DNA from: a virus
Taxonomy: Duplodnaviria; Caudoviricetes
DNA: 64,000 bases
IMG/VR virus record: IMGVR_UViG_3300044557_000107
Coordinates: 32,001 to 96,000 of that record
Direction: 5' to 3' (one strand)
The notes below the pieces were generated by a model that saw nothing but the letters and a program-made list of their open reading frames with translations, was not told the origin of the DNA and made no database searches. The position numbers and the translations under genes were made by a program. Positions 5,814 to 43,945 of this stretch are shown piece by piece (the first letter of the stretch is position 1; every line of letters starts with the position of its first letter).

Positions 5814-7023
5814 CTGATTTATCTACATTTTTTAATTGGTCGTAATGCTCTTTAACTCCTTGCATATCTTCCCATTTAGTTACATCAACGGTTTCATTTT
5901 GGAGTGGTTTAAATCCTTCGGGGAAGTAAATATATAGAATTCGTTGAAATAACTCTTTGCGTAACTCTTTACCTTCAGGACTCTTTAGAAAAGTAATGAA
6001 TTTGTTTTCTCCACTAACCCCTTCACTAGTAGCAAAGCTATACTCTTTTCCACTCAAGCTAGTATACTTACGATATTTACCTACGGTAGTAATAAGTCCT
6101 TGATTATGAGCTTCCATATAAATATTGTATTCATAATCTAATCCATCAACTTTAACTGCTTCTTCATCTGGCTTGTCTGGTTCCATACTCATACCAGCCA
6201 TTAAATAAGCTTCTTGCTTACGATGTGGACGACTTTGCTTAGACTTGTCTGTTATCATTCGAAGAACATGACCACCATATTCATTATTGTTGTCTTTAAC
6301 AACTTTCCCTTTGCGAAGTTCTAATCGTAAGCTACAGAAATGCTTAAGAGCTTCTCCACCGGGGTGGGTATACTTTGCATCAAATTTATTTATCATATTT
6401 TGGTTGGCTCGAACTTGATTAATAAAAATTAAGGCAATGTTAGCTTCACCTAAAATAGACTTTGTTTTCTTTACTAATTTAGTTACCGCAGAAGCTCCAC
6501 GTCCCCGCTGGCCTTCCTGATCGTATTCAATCTCTCCCTCAGCCTTAGAAAGAGTTCCCCCTACAGAATCCCAAATAATAACTACAGGGGTCTTCTGGAG
6601 TTCCTCAGTAGCCTTGTAGGCGTTGATGATATTTTCCATTGACTGACCGACACCTTCGATAGTCATATCGTCTTTTTCAGGCTGAGCTACAAAGGTCTTT
6701 GTAGTATCCACACCAAGTTCTTCCATACGATCTCGATCCGCCGTACCTTCTGTATCAATCCAATAAACAGTTACTCCTAAATGATTCAATACTTTAGTCA
6801 ATCCTATCATAAAAGTAGACTTTCCAACCTGTTCAGGAGCAAATATTTCAGTCATTCGGTTAAATGGAATTCCTCCACCTAACAGATAGTCATATTGAGG
6901 AATAAACGTAGGAACCATATCTTTAATGTGATTGAAATCTGCATCATTGACTTGAACAAAACCCAGCTTTTTAGCTAAATCTACAGTATTAACTTTTTCA
7001 TCTGTTTTCTTTGCACGTGGCAT
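5797..7023 (-). CDS. recA: RecA/UvsX-like recombinase
   Basis: LGGGIP, Walker A APEQVGKST, IDTEG, IIWDSV, FINQVR and PGGEALK motifs. Confidence 0.93.
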   Translation of the reverse strand: MPRAKKTDEKVNTVDLAKKLGFVQVNDADFNHIKDMVPTFIPQYDYLLGGGIPFNRMTEIFAPEQVGKSTFMIGLTKVLNHLGVTVYWIDTEGTADRDRMEELGVDTTKTFVAQPEKDDMTIEGVGQSMENIINAYKATEELQKTPVVIIWDSVGGTLSKAEGEIEYDQEGQRGRGASAVTKLVKKTKSILGEANIALIFINQVRANQNMINKFDAKYTHPGGEALKHFCSLRLELRKGKVVKDNNNEYGGHVLRMITDKSKQSRPHRKQEAYLMAGMSMEPDKPDEEAVKVDGLDYEYNIYMEAHNQGLITTVGKYRKYTSLSGKEYSFATSEGVSGENKFITFLKSPEGKELRKELFQRILYIYFPEGFKPLQNETVDVTKWEDMQGVKEHYDQLKNVDKSGEDDA

Positions 7024-7043
7024 GTTATAGCTCCTTAATTATT

Positions 7044-7075
7044 AAAAAGGTAAGCTAAATATTTAGCTTACCTTT
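7044..7075 (-). terminator. Perfect palindrome / terminator-like hairpin in the recA leader
   Basis: AAAGGTAAGCTAAATATTTAGCTTACCTTT plus T run. Confidence 0.6.
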
Positions 7076-7091
7076 AACTTTATTTAATTTA

Positions 7092-7102
7092 ATTATACCA
7101 CA
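7092..7102 (-). promoter_or_regulatory. Extended -10 promoter upstream of recA
   Basis: TGTGG-TATAAT. Confidence 0.5.
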
Positions 7103-7136
7103 CGACTATATTTGAATGAGGCTAATTACTAGAACG

Positions 7137-7317
7137 ATGAACTACACCATGTTTAAAAACACGGGTTTTTAGGAACGCTGCATGCTTGGGTACCCTAAAG
7201 TACCTAGAGGTTACAGTTATTTACTAAGGGTCGTTCCGACCCAGTTTACTTAAATACCTTTAAGTAACTTATTAAGATACTTGGTTTTCGCATCTAAAGT
7301 TACCTAAGTTCTTTATG
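7137..7317 (-). ncRNA. Putative TnpB omegaRNA A; guide CGUUCUAGUAAUUAGCC...
   Basis: Scaffold homologous to 43967-44081; internal promoter TTACGT(7352-7347)-17-TATACT(7329-7324). Confidence 0.65.
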
Positions 7318-7451
7318 GTTCTTAGTATACCACTAGTTGATTCATCACGTAACTAAAGTAACGTGTTTTATCAACTTTTATTTATAAAATACAATGGCGG
7401 TCATCTAAGATGTTGATTCATCTCGGCATTGAAATACCGAGCTTTCTCAAT
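7137..7451 (-). mobile_element. Composite non-autonomous IS200/IS605 derivative, copy A (outer left end of tnpB-element type + inner ~247-bp mini-element 7137-7383)
   Basis: 7388-7450 nearly matches 42716-42780; 7137-7383 matches copies B and C; ends in GTAGTTCAT like the tnpB element. Confidence 0.88.
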
Positions 7452-8629
7452 TAGAACGGTAAATCATCTTCTGAGATATCAATTGTTTGACCATTATTTG
7501 CGAAAGGATCCGCAGAAGTCTCCAAAGATTCTTTATTCGGTGTGTTATTAGCAACTGGATTAGCTGTAGGCGTATTATCCTTTTCACTTACGGTAGTAAA
7601 CCCGAGACTCGCTGGGCTAGGAGCAACACCCGCAGGAGTTGTATTAGGATTACTATTAGGAATTCCAGTGTTATCTTGAGCAGACACACTCCATGGAGTT
7701 TGTGGGTTTTCTGTAGGATTCCCTTGACTATTTACCGCAGGCGATACAGTTTCCTGAGCATATGGATTTTGCTGATTTGCCATAGGTGGCGTATTAACAT
7801 ACCCTTGGAAGGTAGTCGTTGACGTAGTAACTAATCCCAAAGCTTCATCCATTTTATCAACTGCCCAGCTAACAACTTTAGGCTTGTATTGATAAGATGG
7901 TGTTGCTTGATAATCTAAATCTTCTAATGACTTTTCCCATCCAGCGTCTAATGGTGCCAGCATGTTAGAAGACTGCAAAGAAATGTTAGACTCAAAAATA
8001 TTATTTTTTCCCAGACTACCTGACATATGAACCGGGTATGCAATTAAAGGACTCATGAAACTCCAATCATCAGATCCTTGTACCCCGTATTGTTGAGACA
8101 TCTGTGAATAAAATTGATTACTTGTTGGATTATTTGCCGGGTTCTTTGCTAATGCTTCTAGTTGAGTGAACTGCGTCCAGCTCATACTAAGAACATATAC
8201 TTTATAATTCCCTTGTTCATCCCGAACTTCTTGGTACTGATTATCCTTAAATACTAAAGGAATTACGTTTAAAAGGAACTTAGTAGTGTATCCTCTACCT
8301 GAATTACCATCACGATTATATGGAGTCAAAATGCGTTTTCCCCATCGTGGAATAGCTTGATTTAAAGGATCTTGAGGATCATTCTGAGAAGATGACTGAA
8401 ATACCATACTGCTACGTCCTTTACTAGTATCTAATACCATAGATACTGTTCGGAAATCTTTATAAAAGGTGTTTCCAGTAGGAAGAATACGTACATAGAA
8501 ATCCGGAGTTTTGCGTCCTAGCTTTACTAACCCATTTTTAAGTTTTGTATAAGGCTCTACAATATCATCATTACCTTGTTGTTCGCCATAGGCTTGTGTG
8601 AAACCACTTAATGCTTCTGATAATCCCAT
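7451..8629 (-). CDS. ssb: Single-stranded DNA-binding protein with host-like acidic tip (ISEDDLPF)
   Basis: Synteny before recA; VRILP motif; P/N/Q-rich linker; DDLPF C-terminus. Confidence 0.75.
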   Translation of the reverse strand: MGLSEALSGFTQAYGEQQGNDDIVEPYTKLKNGLVKLGRKTPDFYVRILPTGNTFYKDFRTVSMVLDTSKGRSSMVFQSSSQNDPQDPLNQAIPRWGKRILTPYNRDGNSGRGYTTKFLLNVIPLVFKDNQYQEVRDEQGNYKVYVLSMSWTQFTQLEALAKNPANNPTSNQFYSQMSQQYGVQGSDDWSFMSPLIAYPVHMSGSLGKNNIFESNISLQSSNMLAPLDAGWEKSLEDLDYQATPSYQYKPKVVSWAVDKMDEALGLVTTSTTTFQGYVNTPPMANQQNPYAQETVSPAVNSQGNPTENPQTPWSVSAQDNTGIPNSNPNTTPAGVAPSPASLGFTTVSEKDNTPTANPVANNTPNKESLETSADPFANNGQTIDISEDDLPF

Positions 8630-22419: not shown

Positions 22420-23159
22420 CCACTTCTATCTACTGTTAATTTACCTGTGTTTCCAATCTTTTGATAATTATTACATGTCCCAATAAACTTTGCAATAGAT
22501 ATAATTTCACTCCGAGTCTTATTAGATAGCTCCATTAGATCAAACCCATACAAATACTTTAAATATTGACCGATATTGTCTATTGTATAAGACCATAAAT
22601 TTGTAACTTCATGTTCTAATGTTGGAAATTGATTGATTATTTCTAATCCTCTTTCAATAACCGCTAATTGATCTTCACTAATGTAATCATAGTAGTTACT
22701 AATTAAATCTGGCGTAATTTTTTGAAAATCTCTGATACCATAGTATAGCTGGCATAGGCAATTAATTATAATAGATTCCGAACCAATAACTTTATTAAAA
22801 TTATTTAGCTGAGTAGAATTAGCTATCAAATACGACCAGACATTTAAGACCTTACTATCTAATAGTTTATCTAAATCAGGACCGCGGTTACTCTTATATG
22901 GAGTATATAAAGAGTAACAACTAAAGAGCGCATTAAAATATACTCTCGGATCCTTTGCTCCAATAACATAAGAAACCTCTTTGAACTTTTGAGCAACCTT
23001 TATGTTAGAACTAAGTTTAATCTTGTGACCAGTATAAATTATGGAGTACTCCTCAAATAGCCGCATTAAAGAATACCATTCATAATTATGTTTATCTAAT
23101 CTTAAAGAATCATTAGTAGTTAACGATGTATATTTTTTGATGTGCCCTTGATTAGTCAA
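22395..23159 (-). CDS. Hypothetical replication-cluster protein
   Basis: Lies between the two helicases and overlaps both. Confidence 0.55.
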   Translation of the reverse strand: MTNQGHIKKYTSLTTNDSLRLDKHNYEWYSLMRLFEEYSIIYTGHKIKLSSNIKVAQKFKEVSYVIGAKDPRVYFNALFSCYSLYTPYKSNRGPDLDKLLDSKVLNVWSYLIANSTQLNNFNKVIGSESIIINCLCQLYYGIRDFQKITPDLISNYYDYISEDQLAVIERGLEIINQFPTLEHEVTNLWSYTIDNIGQYLKYLYGFDLMELSNKTRSEIISIAKFIGTCNNYQKIGNTGKLTVDRSGCMIWKKH

Positions 23160-25387
23160 TTTGTCACCAGCTCCTTAACAAATACTACAGGGAACTTTTC
23201 AATTCCGTAAACCTCTTGGCGTTCTTTAGAATGCTTTTGAAGATAATCATTATTTCGATCATAGAAGTCAAATATTTTAGCCGTATTATCTCCTTCTTTC
23301 TTACGAAGCGCACGACCAATTCTCTGAACTACCTGTCTAAAGCTTTTCCCTGCTCCTGCTAATACTAGCACATTAAATCCAGATACGTCAAGTCCTTCAT
23401 CAAAGATACTTGTAGCAATAACTACTCGAAGTTTACCATCCCGAACTTGCTGAATATATTCTTTCCGGTACTTAATATCCTGAGTCCCATTTAAAAACTT
23501 ATTAGGGACTTGCTCGTCGTCTAAGTACTTTGAAAGAATTTCACCTTGTTCTGCATAATTAACAATAATCAAGATAATATTATTACCCGCATAAGCTCGC
23601 TTTGTTAAATAAGCAATCATTTTATTACGGTGCTCATTTTGAACAATCCCATACCGGTACGTATCCATCCAGTTTAGCTTAGCACCTTTTTGAGCAACCT
23701 CATCAGGTATATTAAACCCTTGTGTATTATTGATCGTATAAATTGTAGGCTTGGCAAGAATTCCTTCTTTAATTAGGCTTTCCGCATCCTTTTTTGCAAT
23801 GATTTCACCAAAAATAGCTTGAAGTCGCATCCACAATACCGGATCTCGCTGATCAACTGTGGCTGATAATCCAATATGATAGCGAGCATTATTACACTGG
23901 AGCAAGGATGTATACCATGTATCACTCTTGGTATGATGGCACTCATCTGCAAAATAAGCAACAATGGAATCTAGAAACTTATGAACAAATTGTTGCTTTT
24001 TCAGCTTGTCTCCAGCTTTGTCTTTTAAAACATCCAACCATTGGCTACTATACCGCTTAAAAAGATCCTGAACATCCTTATCAGAACCACAAGAATACAA
24101 GTCATCTTCTAAAGACTGCTTGATCCGCTGTTCAATTTTACTTTTAGGACTAAAGAACCTAATAAATGACTTAAATGCAGATAAAGCATTAGGATTGTCT
24201 ACAAACTGGGGTGCATAATTTAGAGCTATCTTTTTAAGTTCGGATTTCTTTCCGGATATTTTTAGTTTTGCCATTGGGTCTATTGCAAGTGCTGAGCTAA
24301 CCGTTGGTAGCATTACAACCATAACTTTAGATAGTTTACGTTTACTACCACCCCAGTACCCTACAGAAAGTCCAAGCCGGGTGCTTAAACGATCAATGGT
24401 TTGCTTATAAATCTCAGTTGAACCAGTAAAGAAAACAATACGTTCATCCTTTTGCAATTCTGGTAATAATTGCTTGATAAGTCCCGCGGCAATTTCCGTG
24501 TTATGATTAATGATACCATTAGCTACAAACGAATGTGTCTCGGGCATGCTTACATCATAAGTAAACTTATGACCAGCTGGGACTTTATTAATCACCTTTT
24601 CATATGCATACTGAGGGAGATCCCTAGCACTAATACCCTTGTAAGTAACTACTAAGTCATCTACCTCGATGTCCTTAGCTTGTACCCATGTTTGACCAGT
24701 GTTTCTACTTACTAGAAGCGGGTGATTTAGAGTAATCTCTTCATGCTTACCAGACTCTAACATGATATTAACAACTTCACGTTCGCCATTTCGAGTGAAC
24801 TGACCAATTTCTTCGAGCTTCCCATAACGGTTAACTAACTTTAGCGGTTTATTTGGCAGTATCGCCTTTGCATATCCGTCTAGTAGAATTCCTTGATCCT
24901 TGAAAATATCTTCAATAGTCTCATATCCATTTTCTGTAAGCAACTCTGTATCACTCGTCACACACTTTCCTGCGGCCGTTGCAAAATTCATAATACCATA
25001 GCCCTTTTCAAGACCGTTGAAGACTGCTCGCCGCTGATATGGCCGCAACGTGATTTCACTATTGGTATCCTGTAGTTTAATATCACTTGGAATATCATTA
25101 CCGTCTACAAATAAATCTGGTCGCTTGTCAAATGATTCAATACTATATCCATGGCTCATTAAAATCTGCTTAACTTTCTTAACAAGTCCTGTTGGAAACT
25201 CTTGCGTTTTAGCATTATAAAAATTAATAGAAGGATCGCCACCATGCTTAAACGCCCAGCTATACTGATAGTCCTTTGGTAATACTGAAAGTTCATCCGT
25301 TAAGATAGTTTCTATTTTCTTTTGAAGGTCCGCTTCAGTATCTTTAAATTTTATTTTAGTATATGAGGAGTCTATATATAACTTCAA
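23156..25387 (-). CDS. SF2 (UvsW-like) DNA helicase containing a mini-intein
   Basis: LRPYQ, split Walker A TAAGK/TE, DECHH, SAT, EGLD and QRIGRALR motifs. Confidence 0.92.
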   Translation of the reverse strand: MKLYIDSSYTKIKFKDTEADLQKKIETILTDELSVLPKDYQYSWAFKHGGDPSINFYNAKTQEFPTGLVKKVKQILMSHGYSIESFDKRPDLFVDGNDIPSDIKLQDTNSEITLRPYQRRAVFNGLEKGYGIMNFATAAGKCVTSDTELLTENGYETIEDIFKDQGILLDGYAKAILPNKPLKLVNRYGKLEEIGQFTRNGEREVVNIMLESGKHEEITLNHPLLVSRNTGQTWVQAKDIEVDDLVVTYKGISARDLPQYAYEKVINKVPAGHKFTYDVSMPETHSFVANGIINHNTEIAAGLIKQLLPELQKDERIVFFTGSTEIYKQTIDRLSTRLGLSVGYWGGSKRKLSKVMVVMLPTVSSALAIDPMAKLKISGKKSELKKIALNYAPQFVDNPNALSAFKSFIRFFSPKSKIEQRIKQSLEDDLYSCGSDKDVQDLFKRYSSQWLDVLKDKAGDKLKKQQFVHKFLDSIVAYFADECHHTKSDTWYTSLLQCNNARYHIGLSATVDQRDPVLWMRLQAIFGEIIAKKDAESLIKEGILAKPTIYTINNTQGFNIPDEVAQKGAKLNWMDTYRYGIVQNEHRNKMIAYLTKRAYAGNNIILIIVNYAEQGEILSKYLDDEQVPNKFLNGTQDIKYRKEYIQQVRDGKLRVVIATSIFDEGLDVSGFNVLVLAGAGKSFRQVVQRIGRALRKKEGDNTAKIFDFYDRNNDYLQKHSKERQEVYGIEKFPVVFVKELVTN
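24500..24964 (-). mobile_element. Mini-intein (155 aa, no homing endonuclease)
   Basis: Starts CVTSDT after GK; block B TLNHP; ends YDVSM..THSFVANGIINHN followed by Thr. Confidence 0.93.
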
Positions 25388-25427
25388 AATTACACCTTCT
25401 AAATTTATTTTTTAAAATCTTTGCTAA

Positions 25428-25460
25428 TTGACTTGTTATTCTGTTCTACTATGATATAAT
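25428..25460 (+). promoter_or_regulatory. Sigma-A-like promoter divergent from the helicase
   Basis: TTGACT-16-TATGAT, with overlapping TG-A-TATAAT. Confidence 0.65.
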
Positions 25461-25464
25461 GATA

Positions 25465-25965
25465 GTACATATTTAAAAGAATAGCAAAAGAGTAATACGT
25501 TTTTGGCATACGTTACAATGTTGGGTCGCACCCACTAGCAAAAGGACTGGTTCATCTCTCGAGTCGCTCTCTGAATTAACCCATGAGAATATAGTAGTAT
25601 TCTTGCAGTCAACAACGGAATACCAATCCATCAGGATGAAAAACCCTGTAAAAGAGCGGGGGTAGCCTGTAGAGACTACCATGGAAACCATGAATTTAGT
25701 TATCATTCCCCAGATTGTAGTCTAGTGGGTTACACGAGTTACCACTTAAATAACAACTCACTACAACTGGTTGCGTGGGCATGGAGAGCATAATGAATGC
25801 CGTAATTCTTGACGATGTAAGCTAATTAATTGCTATTGTTGCAGTTCTTTAGTTAATAATTATTACATCTTAAATTACTTACGGGTGTTATCTGAGATAC
25901 TATCTTAAGAGACATATTAGCCTGCACTAGGTTAAGTGTCTTTTGAGATACTACAAGCACTAAAA
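25465..25965 (+). ncRNA. Putative large structured non-coding RNA (may extend to the terminator at 26124)
   Basis: Many nested helices and a 9-bp pseudoknot; G-U pairs favour the + strand; no credible ORF. Confidence 0.55.
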
Positions 25966-26092
25966 TAAAGGTTCTTAAGGTGATTATAGTCCATAAAATA
26001 TCCTAATAGTTCCTTTAAGGTACTAAAGTATCTAATATTGACAATTATAGTTTGCTTAAAAGTACATAATATTTATTCATAGAAATGAATAT

Positions 26093-26124
26093 AAAAGAGG
26101 ACTCTAATATAGAAGTCCTCTTTT
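26093..26124. terminator. Bidirectional terminator
   Basis: AAAAGAGGACT-loop-AGTCCTCTTTT. Confidence 0.8.
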
Positions 26125-26127
26125 ACT

Positions 26128-26331
26128 TTAATTGATATTATTAAGTTGGTCCTTAAGGTCTTGCTTAAGTTTCTTAACTTCTTCTAGTTCTTTATGAAGT
26201 TCTTGAGACTCTTTAATAATAGTATGCTTAGCTTTCCAAAGATCTTGGTCATGCTTTGTTGGAACATGGATAAAGGCAATTGCTCTTCCATGCTTATTAT
26301 ACTGTTTCTCCTGATATCCCATACATACCAC
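26128..26331 (-). CDS. Small conserved tail-module protein
   Basis: Follows the adsorption protein; coiled-coil C-terminus; start uncertain. Confidence 0.6.
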   Translation of the reverse strand: MVCMGYQEKQYNKHGRAIAFIHVPTKHDQDLWKAKHTIIKESQELHKELEEVKKLKQDLKDQLNNIN

Positions 26332-26344
26332 ACTCCGTGTTACT

Positions 26345-29300
26345 TTATTCCTGTGTCATGATGCATTGAAGTGCTTTTACCCGCGGACGTTCATAACTGT
26401 TAGATGTGGATAAGTCTAAACGTATCTTGAATTGCTTACTCCAGTTATCGGTATTATCACCAGTTGCGGTGGTTTGAGTATAAGATACACCTGTCCAATC
26501 TCCTTGAGTAGTCGTTACAGGGTTCGCTGTAAATGCCGTCCATGTAGTACCACCATCCGTACTGTATTTTGGAACAACATTAGCAGTTGAAGGAGTTATC
26601 TGACCATACGTTACCTTTAGAGTATTATATGGACTTGCTGTCATATCAACATTGAGACCAATGTAGGAACCCGAAAGTCCATGCAAGAAAGCACCAAGGG
26701 ATAGATCTTCAGTACTCAGTAGTGGTGAAGAATACATAGAGGCATCAAAGGTTGCTTTTAATTGGAGTTGCTTAATTAGTCCATTTGCTTGAACTAACGT
26801 ATAATTTGATAATGCTATCCAAGGCAACGTTGTAATATCAGTATTAGATGCTGTACTAGAATAGATTGCGCGGTAGTACCAAGTAGCACCCGTATTATTT
26901 GGTGTTAAGTAAGTACTTAACAAGAGAAGACTATCTAAGTTAACGGTCATAGGCTTAAATAGAATAGTGGCTGATGAGTTATATTGAGCCGCGTAGATAT
27001 TAAACTTCAAATCAGAAGTTTGTTGCTCAGACCATGTATAGGCGTTAGAAGATTCAAACATCATTCCTGGAGTATAAGCATTCTGATTAAGTGTCCCTAC
27101 GTTGCCAATTAATGTTTCTCCTTGTTTAGCATAGTAAACGGAGTAATCATCAGAATTTGCTAATATTACGATACAATATTGTGTACCAGAGTCTAATCGG
27201 ATCATATCGTCAAAAGATACTTTAGTTTCTACAGAAGCATCTGATGATACACTAACTTGACTAGATGACAGAATTGCAGTTCCATAGATGGTTTCATTAG
27301 GAAATCCTGAAGTCATTCCACGTACTTGAACTTTAACACTGTCTGTGTTAGACTTAGAAGCGAAATAGAGTCCTAAGGACGTCATGTTGTAATACGTAGT
27401 AGGAACAAATGACTGAGCTAGAGGATCTGTAAAATGTGCGGTTACATAAGTCTTAAAGATAATATCTTCGACAGTCTTTTTAATCCCTTGAGCTTCATAA
27501 GGAGCCTCAGCAGAATCTGCATCATTGGTGAAGACAACTTCACGGGTACCACAAGGAACATTAGCTGGGATAACAAAAGTTCCTTGATATGATCCATCAG
27601 CGGCTACTTGAACTTGACCAGAACTATTAGCGGCGTTATAACCAGAACCGGCGGTAATTGGACAAGTTATTCCATAAAAAGTGATATAGAATCCCGTTGC
27701 ATTAGGAGTTAATCCAGTAGCTGAAAATGATAATGTACGAGAGCGAATATACTGTTCCATGGATTCGGTAGTCTGAGTACCACCAGCACTTAAAACAGTT
27801 CCTTGAAGATCTTGAATACCAAGGTTTGTTCCTTCTGTAAATTCAGTCCAGTTACCATTAACATAACTACTTGAATAAGAACTATTTGCAGTATTCCAAG
27901 TAGCATTTTGGACATACCATTCGGCATCTGATGAGTTTATATATCCCCCATGTTGCCACCAGCGATCAAGATAAATTGTCTTATACTGGTCTTCAGTAAC
28001 GGTAACATTGTCAGTATCAATCCAGTTATCAGAACTTGGTGTTAATACTAGCTTACCTTCTCGGGCTTGGTCATATGGATTGACATTTATTGTACTAGTA
28101 GCTTGAGTTTGCTTAATTACTGCGGTTTCCGTAAAGGGTGCCGTAATTAAAGTACTCGTTGTATCTAAGTTGGACTGAGTTAAGTCAAGTTCCGGAGTAA
28201 CATCGACTTGTGCAGTATACGGAAGAGTTAATTCTGCGTCATCGAAGCTCATAGCCGCATCCCAAATAGGATTAGTAGTATCTGCTTTGTCTAGGCTAAT
28301 AAAGCCATCAGAAAATACGCCTCGAAGACTTGTTGGATCTGTTGCATTATAAGATGCTTTATCAAGCATATTAATAGCTTCATTATACTCAATATTGTCT
28401 ACTCGGGTCTTTAGCTTTCCTAAGTCACTCATAGTTAAATTAGAGGTTACATAGACGTTAGAAGAACTATTAGATGAATTAGGGTATAATTCTACATACC
28501 CAATTTGAAGTACCGTACTATCAACTAAGTTAGGTGCCGCAACAGTATCTGCATTAGCTGGAGTCCCTGTATGAACAGTTAAGTTACCATCTTTATCAAT
28601 TGTGATAAGATCTTTACGGTATAAGTAGTATTCGTAAGTAGTCTGAATTAAGCTATTACTAATTAAGACACCACCTGTACTATCACCGGATCCTACAATT
28701 CCCATACCGGTAAAGTCAATATAAGTAACAGCCAAATCACCGGTTCCAGTAACGACCTTGTAGTCTGTATTTAAGACTAATGTTTTGTTGTATACATACG
28801 TAACCCGATAAGAAGTACCCGCAGTAGGATAACTTCCAGAAGCCTTCCAAGTAATACTAGTGTGATCGTTAGTGTAGTCGGTTCCAGCAGTATAAGTAAC
28901 ACCACTGGTACCTTCCGTAAATACTTTTTCGACGGTCAAGACATTACTATCGGGGAAAGTATCAGTTCCCCCAACAGTAGCTCCCCGAGTCATCGTTACA
29001 GTTTTACGAACCTGAGCTACAACGGTATCTACAGATTTAACTGCGGGATAGCTTAAATTGTACTTATAGGTTCCTGTAGTGTAGTAATTTCCTTCAGACT
29101 GTTCGGTAGCTGTAGTTAATGATTTATCTACAGCAATACGTGTAGGGTATTTCTTCTTTACTGGGTATCCTAACACGTAGGCATTTCCTGAATCTACGAT
29201 AATATCCACTTTATTTGTATTAGATGCGTTTTGTGCGGTGCTTAATCCAAATCCATTAGTACCTGAGCGGAAACTACCATTAGTATCATAACTCGTATTA

Positions 29301-29848
29301 GCAATCAGTTCTTGGACCTTACTAAGTTCCGTACTAATATTATTATTAACTAAAACACCGTCTTTAAACGTATAAATAGTTGCCGCGGTAGAATCATTTG
29401 CGACAAGACTAACAGTCTCTTGAAGTCGATCAGCCCCTAGAGACTGGTAAGCATCGGTACCAACTGCGGGATTCTTTAAACTAGGATCATCGTCTGCTGT
29501 AATGATGCTTTGAATTAATTTAACGCCTAGAGTTTCTGTTCCAGCTCCGGTGATTGACACCGTTTGTTCTGGAAAGTGACGACGCATGCCTCCAAGATAA
29601 ACGTCGCCTTCAGATACGGTAATGCTATTTCCAGATTGGGTATATCCCATTCCAGACTGTTTATCACCATCCGACATAACTGAATCTCCAACACCTTTAA
29701 TAGCATAATGGAGTTCAGATTGCATTTCATTTAATTCAGATGCTGATAGTTGTCGGTCAACGTTAAATAAAACCATGGTTCGATTATTACTAGAGTCATA
29801 ACGATCATAGTAAGGACTAACAGTTAAGTCAATGGTTGTGTCTGCCAA
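26345..29848 (-). CDS. Adsorption-associated tail/baseplate protein (DUF4815-like)
   Basis: SPYYDRY, LSASELNEMQ, GADRLQE and DPLAQSF motifs; size and synteny. Confidence 0.85.
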   Translation of the reverse strand: MADTTIDLTVSPYYDRYDSSNNRTMVLFNVDRQLSASELNEMQSELHYAIKGVGDSVMSDGDKQSGMGYTQSGNSITVSEGDVYLGGMRRHFPEQTVSITGAGTETLGVKLIQSIITADDDPSLKNPAVGTDAYQSLGADRLQETVSLVANDSTAATIYTFKDGVLVNNNISTELSKVQELIANTSYDTNGSFRSGTNGFGLSTAQNASNTNKVDIIVDSGNAYVLGYPVKKKYPTRIAVDKSLTTATEQSEGNYYTTGTYKYNLSYPAVKSVDTVVAQVRKTVTMTRGATVGGTDTFPDSNVLTVEKVFTEGTSGVTYTAGTDYTNDHTSITWKASGSYPTAGTSYRVTYVYNKTLVLNTDYKVVTGTGDLAVTYIDFTGMGIVGSGDSTGGVLISNSLIQTTYEYYLYRKDLITIDKDGNLTVHTGTPANADTVAAPNLVDSTVLQIGYVELYPNSSNSSSNVYVTSNLTMSDLGKLKTRVDNIEYNEAINMLDKASYNATDPTSLRGVFSDGFISLDKADTTNPIWDAAMSFDDAELTLPYTAQVDVTPELDLTQSNLDTTSTLITAPFTETAVIKQTQATSTINVNPYDQAREGKLVLTPSSDNWIDTDNVTVTEDQYKTIYLDRWWQHGGYINSSDAEWYVQNATWNTANSSYSSSYVNGNWTEFTEGTNLGIQDLQGTVLSAGGTQTTESMEQYIRSRTLSFSATGLTPNATGFYITFYGITCPITAGSGYNAANSSGQVQVAADGSYQGTFVIPANVPCGTREVVFTNDADSAEAPYEAQGIKKTVEDIIFKTYVTAHFTDPLAQSFVPTTYYNMTSLGLYFASKSNTDSVKVQVRGMTSGFPNETIYGTAILSSSQVSVSSDASVETKVSFDDMIRLDSGTQYCIVILANSDDYSVYYAKQGETLIGNVGTLNQNAYTPGMMFESSNAYTWSEQQTSDLKFNIYAAQYNSSATILFKPMTVNLDSLLLLSTYLTPNNTGATWYYRAIYSSTASNTDITTLPWIALSNYTLVQANGLIKQLQLKATFDASMYSSPLLSTEDLSLGAFLHGLSGSYIGLNVDMTASPYNTLKVTYGQITPSTANVVPKYSTDGGTTWTAFTANPVTTTQGDWTGVSYTQTTATGDNTDNWSKQFKIRLDLSTSNSYERPRVKALQCIMTQE

Positions 29849-37843: not shown

Positions 37844-40800
37844 TTAATCGTCCCACCGAGGAACCCAAGGTTGTGGAATATTTCCAATAGACATCTGAGG
37901 CATTTTAAACGACATTGAAGTATTGTTGGGCCCGGAAGCAACATTGAAATGTATATGGGAAATATCAGCAGAAGTTGTAGTCATTCCAGACCACTCATAA
38001 TATTTATAAGTATGTCCTGAAGTTTCTGTGGGGGTAGTAAGTGTAGCGGTTTGTACTAGGTTACCAGAAGAATCATAAAATTGAACAAAACAATACCATC
38101 CATTATTATTACCATTCCAAGAGGCTTCATATATGCTAAAATAAAATGGATTATTTGTTTGATTTAGGGGAGAAAGAGAATCTACCCATGCAATACTATT
38201 ACCAGATCCTAACCACGCTGAAGGAGTACCAAACGCATCATAAGTTCCGGATCCAAAATCACCGGATCCAGATGAACGTTGCCATGTATCGAATTTTACA
38301 CTATGGGGTATTAGATTAACATGAAGATGACCATGAAATAAGAAATCCCGGAAAGAACTTCCTGTGGAAAGATCATTTCCATTTTTTTGAGCGGTCTCAT
38401 CTGCAAAAGTCCCATAGTAAGCCATGTCTGCCGCAGTTATATCTATTGGTTCTGGTAGAGAGCTTCCCCAAAAATACAAGTCTTCAGGAACAATGTTAAG
38501 TGCGGCTCCGGTTACATCCCGCATGTCAAGGCTAGATGCACCTATATTTAAGTAGCTAAAGTTTTTAACATTATTTGCAGTTTCTTCTGAGTTAATACTG
38601 ATAGTCCCTAAAGGAGAAACCTGAGTAGTAATAGTAAACTCATCCGTGCTTGAAACCGTGTTCTTATTCTCAAGAATAACTCCTAAGAATGGTGAAACGG
38701 AAGAACTCATAGTACTGTTATATGCTCTATCTTGTGCTGGAACCCACGCAGTAGCTGTACTACCCGATTCATATTTTATCATGCTTATTAGCAAAACACC
38801 AGTTCCACCGAGGTATAGTTTAAGAACACCGGCAGTATCCGTGGCGGTAATTGAAGCAGAATACTTAGCCCAACTAGTAGTTACCGTAAATGTATTACTA
38901 GTTTTATCAGATGTGGTTATACTTGTGTTTCCACTGATAGATTTAGCATAGAAAGAAACCGTGGTAGTTGAACCGCTAGAAAAAGCGCCTTGAGAAGTAT
39001 AGTCCAAACCAACATAATTGCTACTATCTCCCGCACCTGTAGACGTTATTTTAAGGCTTCCAATGTACAAATTCTTAGGAGCAGAACTAGGATAATCATC
39101 TGTATCAATAACATAGGTATGATTACCGGATTCTGTAATAGAATCCGTTCCTAAAGACTGATCATAGGCATATCCGCCAGCATTGAACTGAGAAAAGTTC
39201 AGGTAGTTAGGTGGAAGGGGGGTATTATCACTAGTATACTGGAATGACTGATTATCAATAGTCCAATTTTCAGAAGCTAAATACCCCTTACCTGAATCTA
39301 CTTGAGTATTAGAATAAGGACCTCCAGATACAATCATATCCCCGGTTATTTCAAGTTCTTGACCAAAGAGACTGATCTTTTTATCAGTAATAGTAAATCC
39401 AGTAGTTATTTGAGATTCTGTTACATAGGTATTCGTGGCGTCATCTTTAGTAAGGTACGTTCCGGATACTTCGGCGGTAATAGACGTGGCAGTTTGCTCT
39501 ATCTTGCTTTCAGCGCTAGCTAAAGTAGCACTGGCGGCACTATCTGTGTACGAATTAGCACTTGATAGTGCAGTGGCTCCAGCGGCGCTTGCCGCGCTAT
39601 CGGCGTGAATATTAGCACTTGACAGTGCAGTGGCTCCAGCGGCGCTTGCCGCGCTATTAGCGTGAATATTAGCACTTGACAGTGCAGTGGCTCCAGCGGC
39701 GCTTGCCGCGCTATCGGCGTGAATATTAGCACTTGACAGTGCAGTGGCTCCAGCGGCGCTTGCCGCGCTATCGGCGTGACTATTAGCAGAGCTTAACGTT
39801 GCTGAATTAGCACTTGAAGTTTCATCCTTAGTCGTGTAGGTAGCACTTACAGTATCTGTAATAGATGTGGCTGTTTGCTCCATTTCAGACTTTGTAGAGT
39901 ACGTTGTGGCCGCCGCACTGTTTGTCAAATAATTATTTGCTAGATCCGTATTGATAGCTGAAACTTCTGTGTCTATTTTGGTAGATGTTTCCGTAATTTT
40001 AGACGCATTTTGCTGAATATTAGTGTTCATTGTGTTAATTTCATCAGAGTCTAAAACATTTTGAGTTATGGTTTCCATAACTGTTGATGAAATCATATCA
40101 GGAGTAACCTTAAAATCAGAGAATTTAGTATCTATATAATTTTGAGTATCTTCTGGGGCGGCACTCCATGATGATGGGGTATTACCATGTTCTAGCATTA
40201 AGTAACTAATCGTTATCTTAGTGTTAGTTGGCATTTTAATTGTTAAAGTATGGTCGTTTCCAGAAATAGTTTTCCAATTTTCAAAGGTATACGTAAAGGA
40301 TCCGGTTAACGTAGTTGGTTCCCATAGATAAGAATTACCCCCAGTATCATCGGCAATAGTAATCTGCTCTAAGCTACTCAGTGTATATTTGAAAGATAAA
40401 GTTACAGGTTCAATTAAGTTACCGATATTACTAGATAGGTTATATAGAGTTCCATTAGTAGTTACAGATACCGCGGTTCCTGTTTCTAAGGCAAAGTTAA
40501 CTCCACCAACCGAAGTACTAGTTAATGAGGTTAATGTTCCTTGTAAAGTTGTTTCAATAGTTGCATAGCTATCTTTAGTAGCGCTTGCTAAATCACTAAA
40601 TGCTGATTGATAGCTATTAATTGCAGAGTTCATACTAGTAGAACTATAAGATAAACTAGAGGATACGGTGGCCAGATAACTGTTTAAGTTAAGATAAGCT
40701 GTTTTTAGAGCACTCGTATCATTTCCAGAACGAGTAGCTTCTTGATACATTTCTGCGTAGGTACCTTCAAGTGTATTTACTCCAGTTTTAATACTAGATA

Positions 40801-42808: not shown

Positions 42809-43945
42809 ATGACTTTGAAAGGAATCAAACTAAGAATCTACCCTAATAGAGAACAACAATTAAAGATTAAACTTAACTTTGGATATAACAGATTTGTTTG
42901 GAATCAGATGTTAGACATGATGATTAAACGCTATGAAAATAATCCCGAAGCGCCTTTTCTGGGAGCCTATACCCTAGATAAACTATTACCAACCCTAAAA
43001 TGTGAATACCCATTCTTAAAAGATGCTGAATCTACCAGTCTTCAAAATACTAATCATGACTTGATTGAAGCTTATAAGAAATTCTTTAGAGAACACAAAG
43101 GATTTCCTAAGTTTAAATCACGTAAATTTCCTAAGCAGAGTTACCAATCAAAAATGGGAATTAGCAAGGCTTCAACAAATTATTTAAAGCTACCTAAGAT
43201 TGGTGTTGTTAAAGCCAAAGGACAAATACCAGACTGTAAAATTAATAGGGTTACTATCAGATTATCTGCCACAGGAAAATTCTATGTGGTTTTGTTAGTT
43301 GATACAGATATTAATAGTCTTCCTAAAACTAATAATGCCGTAGGCATTGACATGGGTGTAGCAGATCTGATGATTACTAGTGATGGTATTAAATATCCCA
43401 CGATTAGATTTGATAAACTCCTCAGTAAAAAGAAACATTATTGGGAGAAACGGTTAGCTAGACGTAGACTGCAAGCTAAGAAGGAAATAGCTTGGGATAA
43501 GCATAATAAAGTAGCAGAGCCACATGAATTAAGTGATTTCAAGAACTACCAAAAAGCTAAAACTATGGTTGCCAAGTATAATGAGAAAATAGCTAACCAG
43601 CGCAATGATTATCTTCATAAGTTAACTAAGTCTTTAGTAGAGCAGTATGATGTGATTAAGATTGAAGATTTGAAAGCCAAAAATCTTCTAAAGAATCACA
43701 AGCTCGCTAGAGCAATTGCTAACCAATCATGGAGAGAACTACGTACACAGTTAGAATATAAATGTGAATGGTATGGTAAACAACTAGTCATTGTTAACCC
43801 CAGAAAAACATCACAAATTTGCTCTAATTGTGGTTATGATGATGGTAAACACACATTGGATATTCGACAGTGGACATGTCCTATGTGTGGTACCCATCAT
43901 GATAGAGATATTAATGCTGCTAAGAACATCTTAGCTAGTGAATAA
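42809..43945 (+). CDS. tnpB: RNA-guided endonuclease TnpB
   Basis: LRIYPN HTH; RuvC residues in GIDMG, IEDL and DRDINAA all intact; CSNC/CPMC Zn finger. Confidence 0.96.
   Translation: MTLKGIKLRIYPNREQQLKIKLNFGYNRFVWNQMLDMMIKRYENNPEAPFLGAYTLDKLLPTLKCEYPFLKDAESTSLQNTNHDLIEAYKKFFREHKGFPKFKSRKFPKQSYQSKMGISKASTNYLKLPKIGVVKAKGQIPDCKINRVTIRLSATGKFYVVLLVDTDINSLPKTNNAVGIDMGVADLMITSDGIKYPTIRFDKLLSKKKHYWEKRLARRRLQAKKEIAWDKHNKVAEPHELSDFKNYQKAKTMVAKYNEKIANQRNDYLHKLTKSLVEQYDVIKIEDLKAKNLLKNHKLARAIANQSWRELRTQLEYKCEWYGKQLVIVNPRKTSQICSNCGYDDGKHTLDIRQWTCPMCGTHHDRDINAAKNILASE

Follow-up and report, generated by a model that had tools for sequence, protein, structure and literature searches.

What occupies the 740 nucleotides (nt) between the tail operon and the replication genes of a large phage, where no protein seems to be encoded? 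The gap (25388-26127) lies in a window of 64,000 nt, which comprises bases 32001-96000 of the 139,820-bp virus record IMGVR_UViG_3300044557_000107, a record with direct terminal repeats; unless stated otherwise, all positions are those of the window. On one side of the gap is the start of a helicase gene, on the other an open reading frame (ORF) of 67 amino acids (aa) that closes the tail operon, and both neighbours are encoded on the minus strand. An initial annotation, made from the letters alone, had suggested a large structured non-coding RNA (ncRNA) on the plus strand, bracketed by a promoter and a terminator: a relative of ROOL or GOLLD, a new class or an origin-associated RNA. We arrive, with about even confidence, at a self-contained plus strand ncRNA gene at 25433-26126, with a product of ~660 nt that would act in trans as a stable folded particle. 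Most likely, the RNA represents a new family of structured plus strand RNAs that is so far restricted to a single lineage. Large ornate RNAs of bacteria and phages are few (ROOL, GOLLD, OLE, raiA) and their functions are mostly obscure; each new family opens an independent way to find out what they do.

Layout of the gap

The gap is among about ten ORF-free gaps of at least 350 nt in the whole genome, and it has the architecture of a gene. As the initial annotation had noted, it holds no credible ORF: the plus strand has none of 30 aa or more, only ORFs of 3-14 codons without a ribosome binding site (RBS), and the longest ORF of the minus strand (77 aa, 25473-25706) can be dismissed for the reasons given below. 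GC content peaks at 43% in the multi-branched domain A of the predicted RNA, compared with 23-27% in the flanks.

Both proposed ends of the unit were recovered. Five near-identical relatives (L010, L093, L094, L095 and L096), which stem from samples of the cheese, silage and fermentation kind, were found via the helicase and the 67-aa ORF; all densities of variable sites refer to five genomes, while the site-by-site account of changes in the core refers to six. The promoter matches the consensus at ten of twelve positions and has the TG of an extended -10 element (Table 1). It is one of two overlapping plus strand candidates, and only this one (TTGTTA-16-TGnTATAAT) is intact in all six genomes; three of the genomes have mutations in the other (TTGACT/TATGAT). 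None of the 14 positions that define the intact promoter varies, with variation at the nearby positions 25431, 25432, 25446, 25447 and 25454; as 15 of 129 flank sites are variable, such invariance has a chance probability of ~0.18 and is consistent with a functional promoter, but not significant. The terminator at the far end was called on the minus strand and folds on the plus strand, where its reading as a terminator requires that basal A-U pairs are counted as the U tract. Its 11-bp basal stem (26093-26103/26114-26124) is invariant. At the apex (26104-26113), L093 and L094 have six clustered substitutions (CTA...AGA to TCT...TAG), with which three pairs of the apex seem to be restored in a shifted register.

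Conservation among sister genomes

Variation is distributed very unevenly across the unit (Table 1). The core has only three variable sites in 437 nt, and its first 288 nt form the longest invariant run within 5.1 kb, the runner-up measuring 164 nt. The block that is conserved but for one unpaired base (25496-25804) corresponds to the stretch bounded by the closing helices predicted for domain A. There is no codon periodicity in the variation of the core, and its level is below the rate at third codon positions of the neighbouring genes. The core is under strong purifying selection. Since low diversity alone would be insufficient, the argument for selection is the contrast to the hypervariable flanks, which diverge without insertions or deletions. 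The core is more constrained than the helicase and tail genes, which implies a real contribution to phage fitness; and because the body of the unit is more constrained than the adjacent proteins, it is the RNA itself (or its DNA) that matters, beyond the act of transcription.

The leader and the 3' spacer behave differently from the core. The leader has six variable sites (25471, 25473, 25474, 25482, 25484 and 25495). The sequence of the spacer drifts, including a 9-nt insertion in L096, while its length and A/T-richness are kept, and its fold has z scores close to those of shuffled sequences (-0.87 on the plus and -0.42 on the minus strand).

Seven sites of the core vary among the six genomes: three lie at unpaired positions, one at the closure of a triloop, and of the other three, one disrupts a predicted pair and two leave theirs intact. 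Position 25805 (A or G) faces U25875 in hairpin B and forms A-U in two genomes and G-U in four, a standard pair on the plus strand only. Position 25906 changes from U to C in L093 and faces G25945 in hairpin C, so that U-G becomes C-G; this pair, too, is kept on the plus strand only. The claim of the initial annotation that G-U pairs tie the fold to the plus strand agrees with these two substitutions and with the count of G-U pairs, which make up 20 of the 146 predicted pairs.

Strand-specific folding

To quantify fold stability, the minimum free energy (MFE) of each strand was compared with that of shuffled sequences and expressed as z score; sixteen windows of equal length from the same genome, folded on both strands (32 folds), served as controls. 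The fold of the plus strand is the more stable one. For 25460-26124, z is -4.25 on the plus and -2.65 on the minus strand. For the core (25500-25960), the plus strand reaches -131.4 kcal/mol and a z score of -4.41, with none of 100 shuffles as good, compared with -110.4 kcal/mol and -1.10 on the minus strand. None of the 32 control folds is as stable in energy as the core and, with the exception of one window, their z scores range from +2.5 to -2.6. The exceptional window (7001-7461, genome positions 39001-39461) has a z score beyond that of the core on its minus strand (-6.7; -3.6 on the plus strand) and overlaps a candidate mini-transposon at the end of ssb.

The signal differs between the three predicted parts of the RNA. 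The MFE structure and RNAalifold agree on domain A, which has z scores of -2.26 (plus) and -1.62 (minus). Hairpin B has -17.3 kcal/mol on the plus strand (z -3.72) and -10.4 kcal/mol on the minus strand (z -1.67). The difference is largest for hairpin C, with -27.1 kcal/mol and a z score of -5.42 on the plus strand (0 of 200 shuffles as good) versus -10.4 kcal/mol and -0.90 on the minus strand. As the z scores of domain A differ little between the strands, the strand assignment rests mainly on hairpins B and C. An 18-nt direct repeat (25885-25902 and 25936-25953, 83% identical) gives the 5' arm of hairpin C (25902-25915) a second, weaker partner upstream; an alternative pairing or a switch is possible.

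The helices that had been picked out by eye are all present in the sequence: CGCTCT 25565/AGAGCG 25653, GGTAG 25661/CTACC 25676, CATGG 25680/CCATG 25688, CCAGATTGTAGT 25710/ACTACAACTGG 25760, GAGTT 25736/AACTC 25755, GGCAT 25778 (found also at 25505)/ATGCC 25797, GATGTAA 25814/TTACATC 25863 and the long stem 25902-25949. Two of them are, however, disfavoured in the predicted fold: CGCUCU/AGAGCG and the local GGCAU/AUGCC pairing cost 12 and 32 kcal/mol, respectively, in comparison to the long-range pairings of the MFE structure. As for the proposed pseudoknot, ACCCACTAG at 25530 is indeed an exact 9-nt complement of CTAGTGGGT at 25722, both strands are invariant across the genomes, and formation is plausible from the energies: the duplex contributes -14 kcal/mol, and when its two strands are left out of all other pairing and the duplex is added, the total is about -86.5 compared with an MFE of -83.7. 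The match itself is at chance level, as we estimate that ~0.4-0.9 (about one) perfect 9-nt inverted repeats are expected in a sequence of this length.

Several observations weigh against the RNA that we favour. Its most conserved part, domain A, exceeds chance in fold stability by a modest margin and differs little between the strands, so that the constraint there could act on sequence or DNA. RNAalifold, applied to six near-identical sequences, finds no double compensatory change among 146 pairs, two pairs kept by a one-sided change and two broken, with a covariation term of -0.03; the absence of double changes is explained by the near identity of the sequences, while the change of 25761 from C to A in L096 breaks a predicted pair. 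One 437-nt window of the tail gene varies just as little, and these phages are recombination mosaics; thus, low diversity by itself is no proof of selection. No homologue was found beyond the clade in the searches made, so that the family rests on one lineage. Finally, the trans-acting mechanism is something that we purely infer.

Table 1. Features of the gap and of its surroundings, with the density of variable sites in five genomes.
Feature	Position	Strand	Variable sites	Remarks
Sigma-A-type extended -10 promoter	25433-25460	+		-35 TTGTTA 25433-38, 16-nt spacer, TG 25452-53, -10 TATAAT 25455-60
Variable A/U-rich 5' leader	25461-25504	+		mostly unpaired in MFE and centroid folds
Domain A, multi-branched, 297 nt	25505-25801	+		predicted to be closed by GGCAU/AUGCC and CGUUA/UAAUG
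Candidate pseudoknot, 5' strand ACCCACUAG	25530-25538	+		exact complement of 25722-25730
Candidate pseudoknot, 3' strand CUAGUGGGU	25722-25730	+		exact complement of 25530-25538
Hairpin B, long, interrupted, A/U-rich	25802-25878	+		fold compared with shuffles
Hairpin C	25884-25950	+		short hairpin 25884-25901, then 22-bp hairpin 25902-25949 with five G-U pairs
Core	25517-25953		0.69% (3/437)	
Invariant run	25517-25804		0/288	
A/T-rich variable 3' spacer (137 nt)	25954-26090	+		25-27% GC; fold no better than chance
Bidirectional intrinsic terminator	26091-26126	both		ends tail operon (-) and RNA (+)
5' flank of gap			10.1%	
3' flank of gap	25954-26127		13.2%	
Candidate helicase promoter	25459-25487	-		TTGCTA-17-TATCAT, 9/12 consensus matches; putative function
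UvsW-like helicase, intein-bearing	23156-25387	-	3.4% (third positions 8.5%)	flanks gap
Tail protein, DUF4815	26345-29848	-	4.3% (third positions 11.2%)	flanks gap

The phage and its probable host

Judged from the proteins that flank the gap, the phage is of the Herelleviridae type, with a genome of ~140 kb. Its tail protein and helicase are ~42-43% identical to those of the Levilactobacillus/Lacticaseibacillus phages SAC12B, 521B and Lbab1 and likewise to those of Listeria A511-type and Enterococcus phages. The helicase has a mini-intein directly after the Walker A GK (residues ~143-296 of 743). In a related lineage, here called L011, the helicase (L011:6001-8547) has no Walker A intein and instead a larger intein in the DExH motif (ADE/CHH); as the sites differ, two distinct inteins have invaded one helicase gene. 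The genome also encodes a TnpB (42809-43945, plus strand) with 74-81% identity to copies of Levilactobacillus senmaizukei, Secundilactobacillus silagei, S. hailunensis and Lentilactobacillus parakefiri. This likeness points to the host range and to a recent exchange of insertion sequences (IS) between host and phage, and because of it the host is probably a heterofermentative lactobacillus.

Searches for known families and homologues

The initial annotation had named ROOL and GOLLD as possible identities. No family of Rfam 15 matches the gap: a permissive search (E ≤ 10) of 25300-26250 returned only terminator-like fragments far below the gathering scores. For ROOL (RF03087, gathering threshold 99.1 bits), there was no match at E ≤ 10 at 25300-26250 and a search of the whole genome likewise found none at this locus; for GOLLD (RF02032, gathering threshold 150 bits), a search of the whole genome, which scored 13 candidates, gave no match at E ≤ 10. 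The group II intron domain model RF01998 gave no relevant match, and there is no tRNA or tmRNA in 25300-26200 and no tRNA in the whole window. What remains of that proposal is a large structured plus strand ncRNA, for which a new class is the best fit.

These negatives are validated by a true ROOL elsewhere in the genome that both the family-specific search and the permissive mode recover: a full-length copy at G000:C1:104155-104706 (plus strand) scores 103.1 bits, above the cut-off of 99.1. This resident ROOL (L007:8656-9207 is the same stretch) lies in a tRNA island beside four tRNA genes, ~8 kb past the end of the window, and both the ROOL and the tRNAs are ~45 kb away from the RNA unit. 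With gathering thresholds, Rfam yielded four tRNAs only from the window and the remaining genome and missed the resident ROOL in a scan of 80 kb, and for this reason only the permissive result is counted; scanning with default filters overlooked a bona fide ROOL in this genome.

Further identities were tried and rejected. ROOL and GOLLD are ruled out by the covariance models and, in the case of ROOL, also by the absence of tRNA genes next to the unit. An omega-RNA is ruled out by the lack of likeness to the resident scaffolds, of an adjacent tnpB or IS ends and, in tblastn, of any tnpB remnant. A decayed gene is equally rejected, as tblastn found no trace of the SAC12B replication protein, of TnpB or of a 306-aa protein that neighbours the corresponding junction in L011, itself a protein for which no relatives were found.

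Homologues of the core were not found in any of the collections searched. The rest of the genome has no paralogue, and blastn against phage and plasmid records returned none. Five exact 18-20-mers identified no homologue in IMG/VR, the single match (L192) being a chance 13-nt hairpin. Nhmmer and a covariance model (R1), run on 80 helicase loci from related phages and on the remainder of this genome, found none. Among 401 Lactobacillaceae genomes, blastn returned only A/T-rich chance matches of 20-40 nt, and R1 found nothing in the 151 of them on which it was run. A scan of metagenomes with a clade-specific helicase alignment led to the L011 contig only.

The same junction in related lineages

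The L011/L191 lineage, with a helicase 56-58% and a tail protein 65% identical to those of this phage, has a 1063-nt ORF-free insert at the equivalent site (L191 is 99.9% identical to L011 and adds nothing independent). Homology of this insert to the core is ruled out by blastn, by k-mer chaining compared with shuffles and by R1 with its filters off. The insert nevertheless has the same orientation bias of its fold (z -4.81 versus -1.71 on the other strand) and, by eye, an extended -10-like motif, as well as an A/T-rich tail and a terminator hairpin. A third lineage (L190, tail protein 70% identical) carries an unrelated ORF-free stretch that measures at least 767 nt up to the end of the contig; its z scores of -2.05 and -1.87 give no clear fold signal. 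Lbab1 and L099 have essentially no spacer at the junction; for L099 and L100, a comparable gap is absent or the sequence is truncated.

SAC12B-type phages have a gene at this place, on the strand opposite to its neighbours (L003:9705-11171, minus strand; also L012 and L023). It encodes a 488-aa protein that matches PHROG 9432 'replication protein' (E 2e-57) and no Pfam domain, and it is oriented as the RNA unit is here.

As different lineages hold unrelated inserts, a gene or no spacer, the junction is a variable slot, and in this clade the slot tends to hold long non-coding inserts that are transcribed against the flanking operons. Unrelated non-coding inserts at one site point either to a function under rapid evolution, for instance in an arms race, or to a lineage-specific replication origin.

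Alternative explanations

An origin or primer RNA, as the initial annotation had also considered, is the alternative that survives best, although we judge it unlikely. In such an origin, promoter, folded transcript and A/T-rich tract would together allow transcription-primed replication: a persistent R-loop within the A/T-rich tract would prime the leading strand and the UvsW-like helicase could resolve it. Transcripts of this kind are known from ColE1 (RNA II) and from T4 (ori(uvsY) and ori(34)), where R-loops prime replication, and T4 UvsW acts on R-loops. The RNA unit lies at the head of the replication module, directly upstream of the genes of the UvsW-like helicase, a DnaB-like helicase and a nuclease. 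The folded core is followed by the A/T-rich tract, the layout of L011 is alike, SAC12B-type phages hold the gene of a putative replication protein at the equivalent site, and the cumulative GC skew takes on a different slope at ~57 kb of the genome, which is this locus. With its promoter, the easily melted tract behind it and replication genes as neighbours, the unit matches the architecture of an origin, but this match is not specific. In a genome with 36% GC, neutral spacers that are rich in A/T are nothing unusual. The skew change coincides with a boundary of gene modules and is not a global extreme. No iterons were found, the gap has a single DnaA box with one mismatch (the window overall has fewer than expected by chance), and the transcript would stop at a strong terminator and has no obvious hybrid-forming pair of G-rich and C-rich tracts. 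A literature search returned no mapped replication origin in this virus family and none in close relatives.

It is also conceivable, if improbable, that the locus is a cis-acting device and the RNA a by-product: transcription as such and the arrangement of the promoters would matter, with a strong early plus strand promoter occluding that of the helicase and the whole unit serving as insulator between the late tail operon and the replication operon. The promoters of the RNA and, putatively, of the helicase stand back-to-back and share positions 25459-25460 of their -10 boxes (25455-60 on the plus and 25464-59 on the minus strand), so that two polymerases could presumably not bind together, and the bidirectional terminator separates both operons. 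The -35 box of the candidate helicase promoter varies in L093 and L094, at 25482 and 25484. A by-product, however, would not hold 288 invariant bases between flanks that vary by 10-13%, or retain hairpins that are stable only as plus strand RNA; and Lbab1 and L099 get by with virtually no spacer at the junction.

Just as improbable in our view is an element that works as DNA, either a protein-binding site or the relic of a recently spread selfish insert whose low diversity reflects recent common descent. Three lineages with three unrelated inserts at the junction, and the gene of the SAC12B type, make the junction a hot-spot of swapping, and the folding of domain A shows little strand bias. 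Yet the genome has no paralogue of the core, the core has no likeness to the resident omega-RNA scaffolds or tnpB and is not flanked by terminal repeats, and no copy was detected in phage and plasmid records, in the word scans of IMG/VR or in the 401 Lactobacillaceae genomes. Divergence of the flanks involves no indels, as vertical descent would predict, and G-U-rich hairpins make no sense as DNA.

Hidden small protein genes are very improbable: the best candidate, the 77-aa ORF, is on the strand of its neighbours, but its ATG is abutted by GGGGA without RBS spacing, it has lost its stop codon in L010 (25473-74, TT to AA), its product has no Pfam or PHROG match above cut-off, and the conservation of the region lacks a three-base periodicity and exceeds that of real genes.

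A model for the RNA

For the self-contained ncRNA gene that we favour, the following course of events can be proposed. The host RNA polymerase with sigma-A would initiate near 25467 at the extended -10 promoter; because this is a host sigma-A promoter, the RNA would probably act early. Transcription would run away from the helicase gene and halt at the terminator that is common to the unit and the tail operon. The transcript would fold into domain A and hairpins B and C, with the ~440-nt core as the functional part and the 9-bp pseudoknot possibly locking domain A, while the 5' leader and the A/U-rich 3' spacer would be free to drift. Antisense action in cis is unlikely, as the RNA overlaps no gene. 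A trans-acting particle is favoured by analogy with ROOL, GOLLD and the long ncRNAs (lncRNAs) of phage K, and it could be a scaffold or decoy that binds proteins or an RNA-only assembly like ROOL and GOLLD.

More tentatively, the RNA may found a new class among the large structured RNAs of phages, and the junction may be a dedicated, fast-swapping 'RNA slot' with unalignable inserts: two of them (740 nt and 1063 nt) are folded strand-specifically and a third (at least 767 nt) has no clear fold signal. The RNA would then be a stable particle alongside ROOL, either assembled from RNA alone or serving as scaffold or decoy for a host or defence protein.

Comparison with known systems

Among promoter-driven RNAs, the omega-RNAs of the resident TnpB are structured, too, and are found in the same phage. 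The candidate is two to three times longer, has no scaffold in common with them and has neither a tnpB nor IS ends nearby. With ColE1 RNA II and the T4 origins, it shares a promoter-driven folded transcript that leads into an easily melted tract beside replication functions; it differs in that the transcript would end at an intrinsic terminator and that no replication start, RNase H processing site, antisense regulator or hybrid-forming G/C tract was shown.

Closer parallels are found among large ncRNAs of related phages. In two Herelleviridae phages, K and vB_SauM-515A1, abundant lncRNAs are expressed, and one is reported to have an early promoter of its own (PMC9241854, PMC10383478). Lnc001 and lnc002 of phage K (Kayvirus) belong to the same virus family and are likewise abundant, intergenic and 0.6-1.15 kb in size; they adjoin tRNA genes rather than tail and helicase genes, and in the comparison made, blastn of the phage database, there was no match (PMC9241854, PMC10383478).

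GOLLD occurs in Lactobacillales and their phages and is, like the proposed RNA, an ornate ncRNA of very large size; the candidate is shorter, and neither oligomers nor an association with tRNAs can be deduced for it. GOLLD and ROOL are reported from cryo-EM to form RNA-only assemblies (10.1101/2024.12.08.627333). ROOL is the most similar in kind: a large (~0.5-0.6 kb), multi-helix, independently transcribed ncRNA of Lactobacillales phages. The candidate has no sequence similarity to the resident ROOL, lies outside the tRNA island and is confined to one phage lineage. With a ROOL and the candidate in the same virulent phage of lactic acid bacteria, two large RNAs could be studied, deleted and set side by side in one tractable system.

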